NCBI GenBank assembly: GCA_964612595.1
Contig: CAZTFB010000001.1
Span: 3,058-67,057, forward strand
Length of the DNA: 64,000 bases
Source: an uncultured Gammaproteobacteria bacterium
GTDB lineage: Bacteria; Patescibacteriota; Microgenomatia; UBA1406; HO2-37-13b
Direction: 5' to 3'
The position numbers were made by a program, and so were the translations under genes. The notes under the pieces were generated by a model, which had not been told where the DNA came from, did not search any database, and worked only from the letters and a program-made list of their open reading frames with translations. This document shows, piece by piece, positions 2,083-57,950 of the stretch (positions within the stretch are counted from its first letter, which is position 1; every line of letters starts with the position of its first letter).

Positions 2083-4170
<2,088 letters not shown>

Positions 4171-4181
4171 CTACAGGAAAG

Positions 4182-4469
4182 CTAGAATTCGATCGGCACG
4201 AGACCTTCGGGAATCGCGTCGACCTCCACGCGGCGATACCCGCCGTTACGTCCGTCCGGCATGCCGGCCTTGGCACCGATCTCGAGGTGCGTCTCGTTGT
4301 AGAGGTCGATCCCCTCGACGTCCACCCAGGCCGTGCCGTCCTCATCCCACCAGCCGCCGTGGACCGTGATTCCCGCAGCCTTGGCCTCAGCCAAGTGAGC
4401 GGGAAGAAAGTCCGTCAGACGGCCATCGTCGTCCAGGTAGTGCAACTTGCGCCGCGGCAGAAGGATCAT
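4182..4469 (-). CDS. Hypothetical 95-aa protein encoded in a ~65% G+C foreign-looking cassette
   Basis: AGGAG lies 5 nt upstream of the ATG (minus strand ...GAACAGGAGCTGAGATG). This frame has marked G/C preference at codon position 3. Overlapping ORFs on other frames lack an RBS. I recognise no family. Confidence 0.6.
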   Translation of the reverse strand: MILLPRRKLHYLDDDGRLTDFLPAHLAEAKAAGITVHGGWWDEDGTAWVDVEGIDLYNETHLEIGAKAGMPDGRNGGYRRVEVDAIPEGLVPIEF

Positions 4470-9300: not shown

Positions 9301-12300
9301 CGATTTTAGTACAGTCAACATAACCTGAGAGACAGCTGTAAAGATCTATGTTCCATCCAAGAACAGCTGAGAGATCATCGGTTGATGCAATATCTCCATC
9401 GGCGTCTTCGAATTTGTAGCCAGATATGGAGCCTCTCTGTGTGTTGGTAAAGGTACAGGTTACATTCTCGCCTGGCTCAAGATTTATGGTTGCTACTCTA
9501 TTTTCAAGGCTAACAGTACTGGGGACTGAAGATTGGCCATCGCTACAAGTGAGGCCAGTAAGATCCCAACCATCAACTGCTGCTTCTGTAAAGGTATAAA
9601 CACCATTTACTAAACTAGGGATGGTTATGCTGTTTGAAAGTGTGTTGTCTGCATCGTCATCTAAACTAAAGCTTCCGGTCCCTGTGGCGGTGAAAGCGAA
9701 GTCTTGTGCGCTATTTGGATTTGCATCTTTAATGATGGTGATAGACCCACGAGCTACGTTGGTGAATGTACAGGTGACGGTTTCGCCAGTGTTTACGCTT
9801 AGATCATCTATAATTCTTCCATTTCCGGCTTGTTGATTGGTACATGAATATGTGCTGTCATACAGATCGCCGTTCACACCTGTATCTGGGCTTTCGACAA
9901 TATCATACTCACCGTCTGGAAGAATATGCTGGCTCGTTTGGTTGTGACCAAGTGTTGAGGATGCTGTGGCATACTCACCATCAACCGCCATATCCCAGAG
10001 GGATGTATCGTTGGTTGGGTTGAGGACTTTCTTAATAATTAATGTACCTCTTCCTTGGTTTCCAAAGTCATTTCCTTGTGAGTTTTGACCTGATTCTGCG
10101 ACTACTGTGTGGCATGTTGGACTTGATGTTTGTGTCCATCCGCTTTGTGCGACCTCACAAACAACGTATGTTCCAGGTCCAAGATTGGTGAAGCTGTAAT
10201 TACCATTCGCATCAGTTGTATCGCTGACTTCTCCCTGATCTAGCGTTTGATTATCATTTGTATCGATAAAAATAGTCCAACCCTGAAGTCCAGGTTCTTG
10301 GTCACGTGAACCGTTTCCATTTAGATCATTATATTTGGTGCCGGTTATGTCAATGTTTTCAAAGTTGGCGAAATCAACCTGAGTTTCTGCTCCACTTACC
10401 ATTCCAATTGGCGTTGGGGTAAGACTTTGTGGTCCATATGTTTGTGTCCACCCGGCTTGTTGTTGCTCTTTGACATAGTATGTATTGCCGGCAAGTAGGC
10501 CAGTGAATTCAAAGAAGCCATCTGAAAGTGTAGTATAGGTATTGAGTAGAGCACTTGTAACTCCATCATAAAGTTCAAATACCCAACCACCAAGCGTATC
10601 AAGAAGATCGTCAGCATCTAGTTGACCATCCCCATCGTTGTCTTGATATTTGTAGCCATAGATTTGTGCATATTTTGCGTTTCCAAAGTCATTGTCTGTA
10701 TAAGAATTTCCACTTTCGACGGTAACATCATAATATTTATATGCTGGATATGTTTGATACCATGTATTTGCGTCAAGAGTGCCTTCAGCTACAACATGGA
10801 TTCCTGGTGTGCAAACTTTAAAGCTATAATTACCATTTTCATCAGTAGTTGTTTGATCTTCTGATTGTCCTGATAGATTAATCGGCCAGTCAGCAACTGT
10901 TGGCTCGTCTTGATCCCATTCACCGTTACCATTAAGATCTTCCCATTTACTACCCGAGACGGTTGCACATGCAAAGTTGCCAAAGTAAACGGTTTGATCA
11001 GACGAGCTTGTAAGCTCGACATTTTGAAATAGTGGTGTGGTGTTAGACCAGTCAGTTTTCTGAGTTTCAGTTACCGTATATTGTCCTGGAAGTAGATCAT
11101 TAAACGTTGTACATCCATTTTGGTCGGTAACTTGAACTACATTACCTGGGGTCAAGGTCATTGTCCAGTCACCGAGTAAAGTGTCTCCTGTTCTATTGCC
11201 ATCTCCATTTTCATCTTCGTATTTACATGCAGTGATATCTCGAAGGCGTGTGTTATTAAAAGTACATGTTATCTGATCGTTTGGACCGACGGTAATGCCT
11301 GTTACACCAGTCGAGCCTGATGTTCCAATTGGAGCACCAGCAGCATTCGTACATGAAGCAGAAGTAAGGCTCCATCCAGTTGGAACTGTTTCAGATACAG
11401 CATATGTGCCTGTGTTTACAGATACAAATCCCGTAGTACCAGTATTTCCTACTGTAGTGATTTGTGGTGTTGAGGCTGAAGGACCGGATACACTGAAATC
11501 AAACGTTCCATTGTCACCAGAAGTATTTTTTACGACTTTGAGTTGACCTTGGTTTACAGTGTTGGTTATTGTGCAGACAATATCATCATCTGGATCTACA
11601 TCTACATTCAACGGTCCCGTACCTGATGAAGTAGCTACGACATTGGTTGTTCCTCTATCGACACATGTTATTGTTGAACTATAATTTGAAATTGTAGTTC
11701 CTGCACAAGCAGTTTCACCAACAGTGTGTGTAGCACCAGGGTTTGCATTCGTTCCTGCAGTGACGTTTACTATGCCAGTTGTTCCAGCATCACTTACACA
11801 AGCTGCTTCGGTTGTGCTGTTGACCTGAAGATTAAATGTTCCACTGTCATTGGAAGGAACAAGATCTTTAACGACCTCAATTTTTGCGAATTCTGGCACA
11901 GTAATTGGTACTGAGAATCCATCCTCACAATTACATTTTGAAGGAGCACCTGGAACTGTATCGAGTGGGCCGGTACATGCTGTTGCATTTTGTTCCCAGG
12001 TTGTACAATACGGAAGATTTAGATAGTTATTTGCATCTGGAATACAAGCGACAGTTAATGTCAGTGAAGGGTTCACTGGAGCTGCACTTGATATGTCTCC
12101 GCACACATTGCTGTCAAAGTTGTACCAAGGTGGTACAGGTGAGTATGGAAGTGTTGATATTGAACAGCTGCCAGATAATGCGCTTGATTGTCCCCCAGTT
12201 GCAAACCAAAGACCTACATTGTATCGTTGTGTAGCTGTAGATTGAACTTGCCAATCAGCTCTGAATGTTACTGTATCACTAGGTGAGGTACATCCATCAT

Positions 12301-52830: not shown

Positions 52831-53586
52831 AACCTCGGGGGTTGTATAGAGCAGGAATACGCGCTAATCTGATTTTAACTTATTCTTAATATCAGTTGTG
52901 TATCATCATGGCTATATGCCAAGCAGAAAAGATGTGTTCAAGAATTTAAATTACTATCATATTTACAATAGAACTATCGATAAAAAACTCATCTTTTTAG
53001 ATCATAATCTTGCTTCGATTTTTCTTGATACAGCAAACTTTTATAGATATATCAACCACAAAATTAGTTACTCTGTCTTTAGGAGAATGATTACTAAAGA
53101 TAGCCAGAAGTATAAAGAAGAGCACTTTATGAATCCGGGAATAAAGATCGTTTGCTACGTACTTATGCCTAATCACTATCACTTCATGAGACAACAAGCC
53201 GATGCCGGTATCGTGAAATTTATTTCTAATCTGACAAACTCTTTTACACGTTACTTTAATGTATTACACAACAGGAGAGGCCCACTCTTCCTTACACAGT
53301 TTTGCTCTGTGCATATTCGCACGCCAGTGCAGCTTACTTATACAAGCAAATACATACACTTAAATCCTTTAAAGGCAAAAATTATTTCGAGTACTAATGA
53401 GATAGTAAGCTATCGCTGGTCATCACTTCGTACATATCTATATGGTCTCCATTCTGAGGCTGTTGATCCTAGCTACGTAATGAAATATTTTCAGAATTCA
53501 TCAGAAGAATATTTGAAGTACTTAAAATTAAAAAAAAGTTAAATCCAGATTGAATTGTGGAGGCGCTCTAAATCACCCCCGAGGTT
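52831..53586 (+). mobile_element. IS200/RAYT-like unit bounded by 49-bp imperfect inverted repeats
   Basis: Left end: aacctcgggggttgtatagagc...aatctgattttaac (52831-52879). Reverse complement of right end (53538-53586): aacctcgggggtgatttagagc...aatctggatttaac. The outer 12 nt are identical and the inner 14 nt match at 13/14. The right end lies 3 nt from tRNA-Ala. Confidence 0.65.
52898..53542 (+). CDS. Y1 HUH transposase-like protein (IS200-like / REP-associated tyrosine transposase family)
   Basis: YHIYNR..., LMPNHYHF (HUH) and YIHLNPLKAKI (catalytic Tyr region). GTG start at 52898, or ATG at 52916. Confidence 0.75.
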   Translation: MYHHGYMPSRKDVFKNLNYYHIYNRTIDKKLIFLDHNLASIFLDTANFYRYINHKISYSVFRRMITKDSQKYKEEHFMNPGIKIVCYVLMPNHYHFMRQQADAGIVKFISNLTNSFTRYFNVLHNRRGPLFLTQFCSVHIRTPVQLTYTSKYIHLNPLKAKIISSTNEIVSYRWSSLRTYLYGLHSEAVDPSYVMKYFQNSSEEYLKYLKLKKS

Positions 53587-54528: not shown

Positions 54529-55676
54529 GGAATCAAGAAAGCTATTTACTTTATTGACAACACGACTGTGGCTGGAACGCTTGTTTTTTTACTTCAGCTA
54601 AACGCCAAAGATTTGTTTAAAAAAATAGAAAGGAGGTGATTCACCCGCTCCTTCCAGAACGGGTACCTTGTTACGACTTAGTCCCCATCGCCAGTCTTAC
54701 CTTCGTCCCCTTAACAGAGCCTTCAGGCACTACCGACTTTGTTGGCTTGACGGGCAGTGTGTGCAAGAGATAAGAACGTATTCACCGCAGCTTGGCTGAT
54801 CTGCGATTACTACCAATTCCGCGTTCATGAAGTCGAGTTGCAGACTTCAATCCCCACTGAGAGACCGTTTATGAGATTAGCTTCACGTCGCCGTTTCGCA
54901 ACTCTTTGTCGGCCTCATTGTAACATGTGTGTCGCCCAGAGCATAAGCGTCATGCTGACTTGACGTCTGCTTCTCCTTCCTCCCCCGCATAGCGAAGGCA
55001 GTCCCCTATGACAGATATAACATAGGGCGAAGGTTACGTTCGTTGTCCCACTTAAGGGCACTCCTCACGGAACGAACTGACGACAGCCATGCAACAGCTG
55101 TGCAACGCCCTCGAAGGCGGCCTGGGTTTCCCCAAGCTTGCAGTTGCATGTCAAGCCCTGGTGAGGTGCTTCGGTTTGTCTCGAATTAAACCACATGTTC
55201 CACTGGTTGTGTATCTCCCCGCCAATTCCTTTGAGTTTCAGCCTTGCGGCCGTACTCCCCAGGCGGCTCGCTTAACGCGTTAGCTTCGCCACACCCCTTA
55301 AAGATAAACTAAAAGAAATGCAACTAGCGAGCATCGTTTAGGGCTAGGACTACCCGGGTCTCTAATCCGGTTCGCTCCCCTAGCTTTCGTCTTTCAGCGT
55401 CAGTTTTCTTCCAGTAATCTGCCTTCGCCATTGGTGTTCTTGATAGTATCAACGCATTTCACTACTCCTCTATCAATTCCGATTACCCTAAAGAAAACTC
55501 CAGTTTAACAGTATTACTTCCCTTCCCTCGAGTGAGTCGAGGTCTTTAAAAAGTAACTTGGAAAACCGCCTACAGACCCTTTACGCCCAGTCACACCGGA
55601 TAACGCTTGTAGCCCCCGTATCACCGACGCTTCTGGCACGAAGTTAGCGGCTACTTTCTAGCGAGGTACCGTCAAC

Positions 55677-56072
55677 CCAGCTCTATTTACTCTTATAGGT
55701 CTTTCAAAAATGTATTTCCATTAGATGCCACTAAAGGTACAGATTTGAGAGAGTGAACTATTCGTTTTTTTAAATGGCACTTGTTTGCACCATGGTCTTT
55801 AAGACCAGCTTCTCTTTTTTGTGCATCTATTTTTGAAGTAAATGCTTCATAGTATATGAGTTTTAGAGGCACGTGTTTCGAAGTGAAAGTGCTTTCACCT
55901 CTATTGTGTTGCGCCAGACGTCTTTTGAGATCGGATGTGTATCCATAATACACAGTTCCGTTCCTCAGACTTTTTAAAACATACACATAATACATATACA
56001 CGCATACTAACATGCACGTATTAAAGGAAGATTAATTTAATGAGAATAGCTCATAAGAAAAAATAGAGCTGG
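55677..56072 (-). mobile_element. 396-bp insertion at the apex of 16S helix 17 with 23-bp terminal inverted repeats and a GIY-YIG ORF
   Basis: Plus-strand ends are ccagctctatttactcttatagg (55677-55699) and ctcataagaaaaaatagagctgg (56050-56072). The outer 12-13 bp are perfectly complementary, and 19/23 match overall. Flanks are conserved 16S sequence (...GGGAAGAAG | insert | TTGACGGTACC...). Confidence 0.8.
55693..56013 (-). CDS. GIY-YIG nuclease-family protein encoded inside the 16S insertion, same orientation as the rRNA
   Basis: YYVYVLKS..GTVYYGYTSDLKRRLAQHN...YYEAF...AQKREAGLK are GIY-YIG hallmarks. The start could be ATG 55995 (MYYVYVL). No SD sequence. The stop codon lies inside the TIR. 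Confidence 0.75.
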   Translation of the reverse strand: MLVCVYMYYVYVLKSLRNGTVYYGYTSDLKRRLAQHNRGESTFTSKHVPLKLIYYEAFTSKIDAQKREAGLKDHGANKCHLKKRIVHSLKSVPLVASNGNTFLKDL

Positions 56073-56424
56073 GCTTCTTCCCTCGCCACAGCGGTTTACG
56101 CCCCTAGAGGCTTCTTCCCGCACGCGGTGTCGCGTGGTCAGGCTTTCGCCCATTGCCAACGATTCCTGATTGCTGCCATCCGTAGATGTGGAGTCCGTAT
56201 CTCAGTACTCCTCTGACTGATCACCCTCATGAGGTCAGTTACCCGTCATAGGCTTGGTGCGCTATTATCACACCAACTACCTGATAGGCCGCAGGCCCCT
56301 CCCTTGGCGAGCAGTTACGCCCTTTAATCCGGGGATATTATAAGGGATTACCCCCGATTTCTCGGGGCTATTCCTTACCTAGGGGTAGGTTCCTACGTGT
56401 TACTCAGCCGTCCGCCACTACCTA

Positions 56425-56476
56425 CCAGCCCTATTTAATACTATAGGGATTTACCTATAGTATTAAATAGGGCTGG
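56425..56476 (-). repeat. Perfect 23-bp-stem/6-nt-loop palindrome forming 16S V1 (helix 6); arms homologous to the helix-17 insertion TIRs
   Basis: ccagccctatttaatactatagg-gattta-cctatagtattaaatagggctgg. The arm matches the left TIR ccagctctatttactcttatagg at 19/23 positions. Confidence 0.8.
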
Positions 56477-56631
56477 CAAGACGTTCGACTTGCATATCTT
56501 AGGCACACCGCAAGCGTTCATCCTGAGCCAGGATCAAACTCTTAAAATAAATAATGTTTCCAACCACACTCGTATTGTCAATGCGCTCTCCAAGGCAACG
56601 AAGACTCTCCCAAGGCCACTGGAGTTTAACT

Positions 56632-56882: not shown

Positions 56883-57950
56883 CTATGAATATATGATGAC
56901 TCGCTTGAGCAATGCAGGTTCTTCGATGAGTTTCATAATGCCAAGCACTGTTGCATCCTCAGGCTTTCGTGCTCGGATTACAGGAAGTTTTACCTCATTG
57001 CTTATGTACTTATCAAGTCCAGGGATGTATGCCATATTCCCCGTCATCACAATGCCACTTTTGATAAGTCCATCAACAATTTCCGGTGGAATTGTTTCAA
57101 TCAATTCTTTAATACCGTCTACTATTTGATTTACACATGTTGCAAGGGCCTCGCGAATATCACCAGCAGTTACGCGTACTGATTTTGGTAGACCATTTTC
57201 AAGCGACTTTCCTCGGACAGGGAATATCTCCTTAGAATCCAATAATGAAAAAAGCTTAATTTTTAGTGTCTCTGCAGTTTGTTCACCCACAATCAATCCG
57301 TACTTAAGATGTAAGTAGTTATATATGAGTTTATCCATATGATCACCTCCAAGTTTCAGTACTTTTGAGGTAACAATTCCCCCCATAGTAATAACGGCAA
57401 GTTCAACAGACCCAGCGCCAATATCCATAACAAATGCCGGTTGGTTCGAAAAGATCTGTATATCAGCACCGCACGCTGCTGCTATAGGCCGCTCAATTAA
57501 GTGTGCATGCTGAAAGCCCGATTTGATAAGTGCTTCCTGGAGGGCTCTTTGTTCAACTTCTGTCGAACTTGTGGGAACAATTGAGTAGGCAGCAAGCCCC
57601 TTTTTTATAAGTGATGTTCTATAGTAGGGTAATACAGATTTCTTTAGCAATGCAGACAGAAGAGAGACAGTTGCATCAAAATCAGAAATAATTGAATGCT
57701 CAAACGGCTTCGAAATAACGATGTATTCAGGTGATTTACCCAATATATCCTTTGCTTCTGATCCAAAGAACATAACTTGGTTGGTACGTGTATTTTTTCC
57801 CACGAATGTCGGCTCGCGAAGGACGATACCTTTTTCTTCAATACCAAAGCGCGTCATTGCAGTGCCAATATCAACAGCCACCGATGTGGGTTTAAACAAT
57901 AGACCGGTATTAAAGTTTATCTGCTTTAGTTTTGATACAATATTTCTCAT
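56883..57950 (-). CDS. mreB: Rod-shape/actin-like protein MreB
   Basis: VAVDIGTAMTR..., DIGAGSVE..., actin-fold phosphate motifs. Confidence 0.88.
   Translation of the reverse strand: MRNIVSKLKQINFNTGLLFKPTSVAVDIGTAMTRFGIEEKGIVLREPTFVGKNTRTNQVMFFGSEAKDILGKSPEYIVISKPFEHSIISDFDATVSLLSALLKKSVLPYYRTSLIKKGLAAYSIVPTSSTEVEQRALQEALIKSGFQHAHLIERPIAAACGADIQIFSNQPAFVMDIGAGSVELAVITMGGIVTSKVLKLGGDHMDKLIYNYLHLKYGLIVGEQTAETLKIKLFSLLDSKEIFPVRGKSLENGLPKSVRVTAGDIREALATCVNQIVDGIKELIETIPPEIVDGLIKSGIVMTGNMAYIPGLDKYISNEVKLPVIRARKPEDATVLGIMKLIEEPALLKRVIIYS

Follow-up and report, generated by a model that had tools for sequence, protein, structure and literature searches.

Open reading frames (ORFs) for GIY-YIG and LAGLIDADG proteins have been known since 2015 in insertions within ribosomal RNA (rRNA) genes from bacteria that belong to the Candidate Phyla Radiation (CPR) (PMC11270868). 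The GIY-YIG ORFs all lie in insertions unlike group I or group II introns, are scattered sparsely over several poorly conserved sites, and have been treated as rare, recently acquired and outside homing; most CPR rRNA insertions are found at the tops or bases of stem-loops (PMC11270868). A passage of a review (PMC9698310, citing Brown 2015) reports that CPR rRNA insertions are removed from transcripts, and excerpts of the literature on intervening sequences (IVSs) describe helix-tip insertions that are cut by RNase III and removed without religation. A further system of interest is the Ssn family, single-domain GIY-YIG proteins of ~95 residues whose genes are flanked by hairpin repeats. The Ssn proteins bind a hairpin in single-stranded DNA (ssDNA) and cut beside it in a strand-specific manner, each protein being matched to its own repeat (PMC11893778). 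Here, a 64,000-nt stretch of contig CAZTFB010000001.1 (assembly GCA_964612595.1, positions 3,058 to 67,057), referred to below as the window, was analyzed. In this stretch the apex of helix 17 (h17) of a 16S rRNA gene is replaced by a 398-nt element that carries a GIY-YIG ORF. The insert is probably one copy of a compact selfish cassette, consisting of an inverted repeat around a single-domain GIY-YIG gene, that has recently replaced the h17 apex. By the same reading, and with the same degree of confidence, the host is taken to be a Microgenomates-group CPR bacterium in which a gene-less miniature of the same hairpin took the apex of helix 6 (h6).

The host gene is complete and occupies positions 54629-56549 of the minus strand, where the Rfam model RF00177 identifies a full-length bacterial 16S rRNA gene (1301.9 bits, model positions 1-1533). 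The gene is 1921 nt long compared with the 1533 positions of the model, and the alignment shows two apical insertions, 388 nt at h17 where the consensus has 7 and 39 nt at h6 where the consensus has 3. Alignment with near-identical, insert-free 16S genes (loci L104, L120 and L122) fixed the boundaries of the h17 insert at 55676-56073 (minus strand), between GGGAAGAAG and UUGACGGUACC. On the rRNA strand, GGGAAGAAG runs into CCCAGCUCUAUUU at the start of the insert and AAAUAGAGCUGGG runs into UUGACGGUACC at its end, and the cassette stands in for a native hairpin of 16-17 nt. An inverted-repeat search recovered the ends as a 21-nt repeat with 90% complementarity. The 5' arm, CCCAGCUCUAUUUUUUCUUAU, lies at 56053-56073 and the 3' arm, AUAAGAGUAAAUAGAGCUGGG, at 55676-55696, both on the minus strand, and the C-rich outer end of the 5' arm conforms to the family consensus described below. 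When CCCAGCUCUAUUU is paired with AAAUAGAGCUGGG, the first 13 pairs are perfect, and the 23 positions give 19 Watson-Crick and 2 G.U pairs. The precursor context of the insert folds with a z-score of -8.5 relative to shuffled sequences; the terminal stem dominates this fold and closes the insert.

The ORF extends from 56013 to 55693 on the minus strand (321 nt, 106 aa) and encodes a single GIY-YIG domain (Pfam PF01541, E=3.6e-16). It is on the rRNA strand and therefore sense, and its stop codon at 55693-55695 lies inside the 3' arm and belongs to it. About 75 nt of the insert are non-coding. No Shine-Dalgarno motif precedes the ORF. Besides the 16S itself, an Rfam search of 55600-56150 at E<=10 returned chance-level matches to snoRNAs and miRNAs, and none to an intron or ribozyme family. 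The replaced apex, the complementary ends, the sense ORF with its stop codon in an arm, and the lack of a ribozyme core and of a Shine-Dalgarno site had all been proposed in the sequence-only reading of this stretch and are borne out by these searches.

It was considered whether the arrangement could be an assembly chimera or a misjoin, as the rRNA regions of metagenomes are often misassembled and contigs of relatives, L119 for example, break at the 16S gene. However, the same ORF and 16S sequence were assembled independently in eight contigs from other samples or sequencing runs, which span one or both insert junctions with essentially the same sequence. Over the aligned span, six of the eight are 100% identical to the window and L006 shows a single mismatch; the differences of L002 are confined to the last ~40 bases at its contig end (L002 positions 1293-1331) and were disregarded. 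The population is represented in the metagenome runs SRR15237799-816, SRR26809237, SRR29243453 and SRR35845086. The same architecture also recurs in dozens of unrelated genomes, and the chance that it arose by misassembly is considered negligible.

The relatives that lack the insert are very close. Outside both apexes, the 16S genes of L104, L120 and L122 are 98.2-99.2% identical to that of the window. L104 differs by 7 substitutions in ~830 aligned nt, and its 408 nt downstream of h17 match those of the window at 100%. L120 (Ca. Woesebacteria GCA_018062135.1) and L122 (Microgenomates bacterium OLB23), which were reached via homologues of the adjacent MreB gene, are 98.2-98.5% identical. Both the h17 cassette and the h6 hairpin are absent from all three. 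L104 reads GGGAAGAAG-AUCUGGUUUAUCCAGAU-UUGACGG at h17 and has a short GCAA hairpin at h6, while L120 and L122 have 16-nt native h17 hairpins, AUCUAAUUUAUUAGAU and AUCCGAUUUAUCGGAU, respectively, and a short h6. The pattern shared at h17 is GGGAAGAAG-AUCYRRUUUAYYRGAU-UUGACGG, and the three native hairpins differ by compensatory changes, indicating that a small h17 hairpin is the ancestral state. Since these genes are without both insertions, the 398 nt at h17 and the 52 nt at h6 must be gains, or else very recent losses elsewhere. The h17 cassette is a discrete recent gain, within about 1% 16S divergence, and from the same alignment the arms evidently belong to the insert and not to the host helix. 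Five more relatives (L097, L103, L108, L110 and L114) also have short h17 hairpins in the 16S alignment. The sequence-only reading had named a lineage-wide expansion segment with no related copies elsewhere as an outcome that would refute it; the absence from 98-99% identical relatives and the related copies found elsewhere show otherwise.

Two more distant loci showed other states of h17. L106, whose 16S is ~88-90% identical, has a 47-nt gene-less hairpin, UCCAGCGCCGUAUAUUUGAAAACUUUUUCGAGUAUAGAGCGCUGGA, at about 4410-4460 with arms that resemble those of the window; it may represent either what is left of a cassette or a precursor to one. L113 has an h17 gap of the size seen in L106 (at the junction at about 11286-11292), as judged from the BLAST gap alone.

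The second insertion of the window, at 56425-56476 on the minus strand, is a perfect hairpin of 52 nt that replaces the h6 apex and has no ORF; its 23-nt arms are 100% complementary in the inverted-repeat search and enclose a 6-nt loop. Of 23 positions, 19 agree between the 3' arm at h6, CCUAUAGUAUUAAAUAGGGCUGG, and the 3' end of the h17 element, CCUAUAAGAGUAAAUAGAGCUGG, and 16 agree between the 5' arms. The 13-mer CCAGCYCTATTTA, with 0-1 mismatch, occurs in the 64-kb window only at the four h6 and h17 arms, and when up to 2 mismatches were allowed the arm motif was found only at h6, h17 and two chance-level sites. A search of the window with the arm pair (CCAGCYCTATTT), as suggested in the sequence-only reading, finds the related h6 hairpin. 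Judged by its arms, the h6 hairpin is a gene-less miniature of the h17 element. When 30 family members were used as tblastn queries, no further copy of the cassette itself was found in the window.

Gene-less hairpins with matching arms are not peculiar to the window. The 16S of L020 has the gene at h9 and a perfect 42-nt gene-less hairpin at h17, an arrangement that parallels the one seen here. The 23S gene of L016 has three further gene-less hairpins with the arms of its cassette, and that of L036 has a 129-nt gene-less copy at about helix 45. RNase P RNA genes also contain gene-less copies, 125 nt in L062 and 60 nt in L027, with arms like those of their own cassettes.

A word-indexed protein search yielded 172 homologues of the window protein, mostly of 84-86 aa. 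Among the 120 matches listed, all named homologues are from CPR/Patescibacteria, and the best non-self homologues are 56-63% identical to the window ORF. The start typical of the family, MYYVYVLKS, corresponds to the second methionine of the window ORF (ATG at 55995-55993), and the conserved part of the ORF ends near 55744, the last 16 codons forming a tail that runs into the arm. Residues Y11, Y22, G24, R32, H36 and E68 are invariant in the family alignment and include the catalytic Y, Y, R, H and E. The family proteins, with 84-106 aa, consist of the catalytic domain only and have no DNA-binding domain. In ten pairs of related genes, one pair of which is embedded in 23S, dN/dS was 0.05-0.22. 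These ratios indicate that the family proteins are under purifying selection, as expected of working proteins and not of decaying remnants, and such selection implies that the ORF is translated. A Shine-Dalgarno-like motif was found upstream of the start codon in only 8 of 82 loci.

GIY-YIG proteins are classic intron-encoded homing endonucleases, and CPR rRNA genes are rich in group I and group II introns with endonuclease ORFs. The insert might then be an intron of the classical homing-endonuclease kind, a degenerate member of group I or II or else a self-splicing RNA of a new type, which is spliced out with religation of the rRNA. This is highly improbable. The insert has no Rfam intron or ribozyme match and only ~75 nt of non-coding sequence, the protein is a bare catalytic domain, the site is the tip of a variable helix instead of a conserved sequence, and the CPR GIY-YIG ORFs already described all reside in insertions unlike either intron class (Tsurumaki et al., PMC11270868). 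The element resembles I-TevI-type endonucleases in its GIY-YIG catalytic domain and in having its gene within a sequence that interrupts a host gene, but it is without intron RNA, its protein is without a DNA-binding domain, and its target site is not conserved. No usable family was found in NCBIfam, where the group I intron endonuclease model gave 12.6 bits against a cut-off of 56.

A scan of species-representative genomes with a combination of pattern search and tblastn gave at least 600 candidates, at least 592 of which encode relatives of the protein. The best 80, all from other genomes, were examined. Thirteen of these copies are in rRNA genes, 4 are in RNase P RNA genes, 24 are beside a tRNA gene and 39 are elsewhere. 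In 16S the sites are h6 (L065), h9 (L020, L024 and L047), h17 (L034 and L067) and the apex of h44 (L066). In 23S they are positions ~270-300 (L036), helix H25 (L031 and L072), position ~1363 (L016 and L017) and helix H63 (L058); extra H25 copies, outside the 80, are present on the metagenome contigs L013 and L014. All of the RNA-embedded copies are sense, a total of 18 independent cases including the window, and from these counts such uniformity would be expected by chance roughly 1 in 130,000 times.

The RNase P RNA cassettes lie at 3984-4288 in L027, 95-396 in L062, 3980-4272 in L074 and 969-1267 in L077. All four precede the flank ...GGGG/AGGAAAGUCC, which, from its sequence and the textbook structure of RNase P, we take to be the P3 apex of the RNA. 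Rfam calls RNase P RNA in L027, L062 and L077, the local alignments beginning inside the right arm of the cassette, and L074 was assigned on its flank alone.

Among the tRNA-associated copies, a same-strand tRNA gene starts between 2 nt before and 106 nt after the stop codon in 23 loci, and within 10 nt in 15; one further copy is just downstream of a tRNA gene. The ORF ends 1-10 nt before the tRNA in L021, L023, L025, L026, L028, L038, L041, L042, L046, L048, L076, L078-L080 and L091, near 4250-4265 in most of them, and the tRNAs that follow are those for Ala, Ser, Trp, Cys, Glu and His. At tRNA-Ala the cassette is placed between 7-nt direct repeats, CCCGTAG, which duplicate the 5' end of the tRNA. 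More generally, the non-rRNA copies often have direct repeats of 4-7 nt outside the arms (CCCGTAG, AGGCGTG, ATGAAT and TTGA). The sequence-only reading had described the unit as a mimic of an rRNA helix extension; with copies beside tRNA genes, in RNase P RNA and elsewhere, the unit is not specific to rRNA and belongs to a large family of small GIY-YIG genes bracketed by inverted repeats.

Some single loci also deserve mention. In L060 a family member (3999-4265) lies 145 nt downstream of a same-strand transfer-messenger RNA gene (3454-3854). Five cassettes in other contexts (L056, L069, L071, L073 and L087) have runs of T or A directly outside the arms and may sit on, or act as, intrinsic terminator hairpins. 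In L075, from a genome labelled Verrucomicrobiae, the cassette-arm 14-mer CCGCGTAAAAGGCT occurs four times over 8 kb (1017, 1100, 4246 and 6730), which suggests REP-like amplification outside CPR.

The arms were compared across the family. In about 55 of 81 scorable loci, the best ungapped inverted repeat that encloses the ORF scored above all of 30 shuffles. Elements range from 275 to 398 nt with a median of 298 nt, the copy of the window being the longest. Measured from the outer left end, the start codon is at a median distance of 23.5 nt, the stop codon is in or beside the right arm, and the outer right end is a median of 13 nt beyond the stop codon. The outer ends follow a loose consensus, CCC, then C/G/A, then C.C, plus its complement. 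Individual arms include CCCCGCACCUUUU, CCCCGCCCUUUU, CCCAGCACUUUA and CCCCUCACC, compared with CCCAGCUCUAUUU in the window, and CCCCGCACC is an example of an arm sequence that is non-cognate to the window hairpin. Other arms are shared between sites: CCCCGCCCUUU is common to L066 (h44), L074 (RNase P RNA), L015 and L016 (23S), and CCCGCACCU to L034 (h17), L058 (H63), L062 and L077 (both RNase P RNA). Near-identical arms thus occur in different RNA genes and in different phyla, as in L066, L074 and L016.

The distance between arms was correlated with the distance between proteins (Mantel r=0.33, a value reached by 0 of 2000 permutations), indicating that the arms vary in step with protein phylogeny. 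A neighbour-joining tree shows the rRNA copies as polyphyletic and interspersed among copies from RNase P RNA and other contexts; the three copies at h17 do not pair up as nearest relatives, and those next to tRNA genes fall into separate clades for tRNA-Ala, tRNA-Ser and tRNA-Trp/Cys. Mismatches in the stems are asymmetric, with 21 sense-strand G.U pairs versus 6 A.C (p=0.006); selection for pairing therefore acts on the sense strand, be it RNA or non-template DNA.

Several of these properties could also be explained if the protein were a host-useful nuclease of the UPF0213/YhbQ type, parked in stable-RNA units for the sake of their promoters, with the arms serving as RNA-processing signals and the similar hairpins resulting from gene conversion or from convergent selection favouring stable stems rather than from mobility driven by the nuclease. 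Against the family profile, B. subtilis YazA reaches 59 bits and UPF0213 proteins of solved structure reach 51 bits, level with Ssn proteins (N. gonorrhoeae SsnA and a S. meliloti homologue, 53 bits each). The strong purifying selection is that expected of a host enzyme, the strict sense orientation and the location directly 5' of tRNA genes suit a need for expression, and the G.U excess suits a stem that acts at the RNA level. However, the loci also carry signatures of mobility. The element is variably present among 16S genes that are 98-99% identical, the rRNA copies are intermixed in the tree with those from RNase P and other contexts, direct repeats surround many non-rRNA copies, near-identical arms recur in unrelated RNA genes and phyla, and the type of arm co-varies with the protein clade. 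A resident host enzyme is accordingly judged unlikely. Taken together, the comparisons indicate a compact, recently acquired unit that bears sequence signatures of mobility and is strongly tied to stable-RNA genes.

The closest functional analogue of the element is the pairing of hairpin and nuclease in the Ssn/NTS system, in which its membership is unproven. A bona fide N. gonorrhoeae SsnA was recovered with its gene flanked by nine NTS repeats; the window ORF is 42% identical to it, 45% identical to the S. meliloti homologue and 35% identical to YazA. Both systems have a single-domain GIY-YIG protein (~95 aa in Ssn) and hairpin-forming repeats that flank the gene and also occur without it, each protein having its own repeat variant; the Ssn repeats are used strand-specifically, and their architecture has been likened to that of an insertion sequence (PMC11893778). 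Gene-less hairpins cognate to a nearby gene were observed here at h6 of the window and in L016, L020, L027, L036 and L062. The two differ in the C-terminal region of the protein and in the location of the repeats, which in the cassettes are inside structural RNA genes, whereas NTS repeats are reported to lie inside genes only rarely. A hairpin-nuclease model of this kind fits the joint variation of arms and protein, the copies without a gene and the asymmetry between strands. A similar division into an autonomous gene and non-autonomous palindromic hairpins that multiply within a genome, with hairpin-based strand-specific recognition, is found in REPIN/RAYT and IS200/IS605 elements. Their enzyme, however, is a Y1 (HUH) transposase and the only ORF of the present element is a GIY-YIG protein.

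In the neighbourhood of the 16S gene, a 214-aa ORF (52898-53542, plus strand) has a weak match to the IS200-like Y1 transposase family (PF01797, E=7.7e-5, at the cut-off), 1.1 kb past the 16S 3' end and 2.1 kb from the cassette. The faint match is syntenic in Microgenomates OLB23 (L122 7849-8478), a genome without the GIY-YIG cassette. The ORF was dropped as a mobilizing enzyme because OLB23 has it in place and lacks both hairpins.

The life cycle proposed for the cassette begins in the precursor rRNA, where the arms would pair into a helix of ~21 bp that extends h17 coaxially. As the arm duplex continues h17, the ribosome or its precursor could still fold. RNase III would then cut the arm duplex as it does in classical intervening sequences, and with no religation the 16S rRNA would be left in two pieces. 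Either the excised RNA or the precursor would act as messenger for the nuclease, with no Shine-Dalgarno site, and where a cassette lies directly upstream of a tRNA gene, RNase P would release it. In this manner the cassette would borrow the strong promoters of stable-RNA genes and be removed by host processing. The nuclease would recognize its own hairpin on the sense strand of the DNA, as the Ssn nucleases do, and its activity would favour the transfer of hairpin copies, gene-bearing or gene-less, to other RNA genes that form hairpins and are heavily transcribed. Recombination through the conserved rRNA flanks would then allow spread between cells. It may be speculated that the target preference arises because heavily transcribed RNA genes expose hairpins on the non-template strand.

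RNase III-type excision of the insert is presumed by analogy with the IVSs. As in these, the tip of a variable helix is replaced, the ends pair in a long stem, no ribozyme is present, occurrence among relatives is sporadic (the insert is absent from L104, L120 and L122) and some copies carry a sense ORF; known examples are those in helices 25 and 45 of Salmonella 23S and the 428-nt Coxiella IVS with an S23p ORF. In contrast to the latter, the ORF of the cassette is a nuclease under purifying selection and not an S23p four-helix protein, the host helix is h17 of 16S, and the arms are of a family that also occurs at non-rRNA sites. Alternatively, the 398 nt could be kept in the mature 16S as a long h17 extension whose ORF is translated rarely or never. 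It is true that the occupied sites, h17 and h6 among them, are variable helices exposed to solvent and that the terminal stem stacks on the host helix, as a retained expansion segment would require. The cited review passage, which reports insertions missing from CPR transcripts (PMC9698310, citing Brown 2015), argues otherwise, as do the nearly perfect duplex of ~21 bp, a standard RNase III substrate, the excision of helix-tip IVSs described for other bacteria in the excerpts mentioned above, and the selection on the ORF, which implies translation. Retention of the insert is regarded as improbable.

Several observations weigh against a selfish, Ssn-like cassette. The rRNA copies take the place of the native apex and show no target duplication, unlike the non-rRNA copies with their direct repeats; the chemistry of insertion may differ between the two contexts. 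Only one gene-less copy, that at h6, is present within the 64-kb window. The organization of the repeats is different, the cassette being one hairpin split around the gene while in Neisseria there is a complete hairpin on each side. The SRM motif of the Ssn repeats, HGTCWY..RNCYNB, is absent from the window and from 79 of the 80 loci, and it was matched 9 times in the control N. gonorrhoeae locus; for this reason (no match in the window, one in 80 loci) the element was not filed under the Ssn family (cd10448). Moreover, UPF0213 proteins and YazA score as high as Ssn on the family profile, and Ssn-like activity is therefore an analogy and not a demonstrated membership. Finally, h17, h6, h44, H25, H63 and P3 are all peripheral, and an extension retained there might be tolerated.

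The selfish-cassette reading of the window insert can be extended to the family as a whole, at a tentative level. The family might constitute an undescribed class of mobile element, a hairpin combined with a single-domain GIY-YIG nuclease, that is specialized in the apical loops of structural RNAs (16S, 23S and RNase P RNA) and in tRNA leaders. Its members would be expressed from, and removed by, the stable-RNA processing of the host, and would seed gene-less hairpins, thereby acting as a major source of CPR intervening sequences and helix extensions. The targets would be hairpins extruded on the non-template strand of heavily transcribed genes. We hold this wider proposal to be possible, with the balance of probability somewhat against it.

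In terms of published categories, the window element is a CPR non-intron rRNA insertion with a GIY-YIG ORF. It lengthens the rRNA gene of a CPR bacterium by 388-398 nt, above the limit of 100 bp over E. coli, matches PF01541 and matches no intron model. The inserts of Tsurumaki 2024 have the same host group, gene type and Pfam family, are likewise non-intron, and are located sparsely at the tops of stem-loops. In the main text of that paper, supplementary tables aside, the term "inverted repeat" never occurs, and no account was found of arms or their consensus, of sense orientation, of gene-less copies, of RNase P or tRNA sites, or of a likeness to Ssn (PMC11270868). Within the literature searched, the coverage of which was partial and gives weak evidence of novelty, no description was found of the arm consensus, the uniform sense orientation, gene-less matching hairpins, cassettes in RNase P RNA or tRNA leaders, the co-variation of arm and protein, or the link to Ssn. 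Of the novelty claimed in the sequence-only reading, the hairpin design survives, being undescribed in that literature, but GIY-YIG ORFs in non-intron CPR rRNA insertions had already been published (PMC11270868).

The surroundings of the 16S gene were also compared with those of its relatives. The gene is solitary, with no 23S or 5S gene within the 64-kb window. It is flanked on the 5' side by MreB (56883-57950) and on the 3' side by a SAM_HAT-domain ORF, tRNA-Ala(cgc) and glutamine synthetase. The order Wzy-MreB-16S-SAM_HAT-GlnA recurs in L120 and L122, and the window MreB is 86% identical to that of Ca. Woesebacteria and 82% identical to that of Microgenomates OLB23; the lineage of the host was assigned from these MreB homologues. 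The 530 loop of the 16S (55618-55639) reads GUGCCAGAAGCGUCGGUGAUAC, compared with the near-universal form GUGCCAGCAGCCGCGGUAAUAC, a difference of four changes at E. coli positions 522, 526, 527 and 532. This variant would defeat primers of the 515F type. It was used as a lineage tag for finding relatives in the metagenome collection; exact GUGCCAGAAGCGUCGGUGAUAC was found on 20 metagenome contigs, and those that match 16S range from ~68% identity to near-identity with the window.

Should the nuclease turn out to be an ordinary enzyme of the host, and the insert an extension that is kept, the locus would be one more example of the published class. Under the selfish-cassette reading, the questions are raised of whether CPR 16S rRNA is fragmented at h17 and of how a message without a Shine-Dalgarno site is translated from a processed rRNA spacer. 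The many natural pairs of nuclease and hairpin with different arms would be candidates for the ssDNA tools sought by the authors of the Ssn work. Insertions and extensions make CPR rRNA genes unusual and defeat universal 16S primers. If the reading is true, the cassette would show concretely where some of these genes' short hairpin extensions and so far unexplained non-intron insertions come from, and would tie the hairpin-directed nucleases of the Ssn type to a selfish life cycle inside stable-RNA genes.

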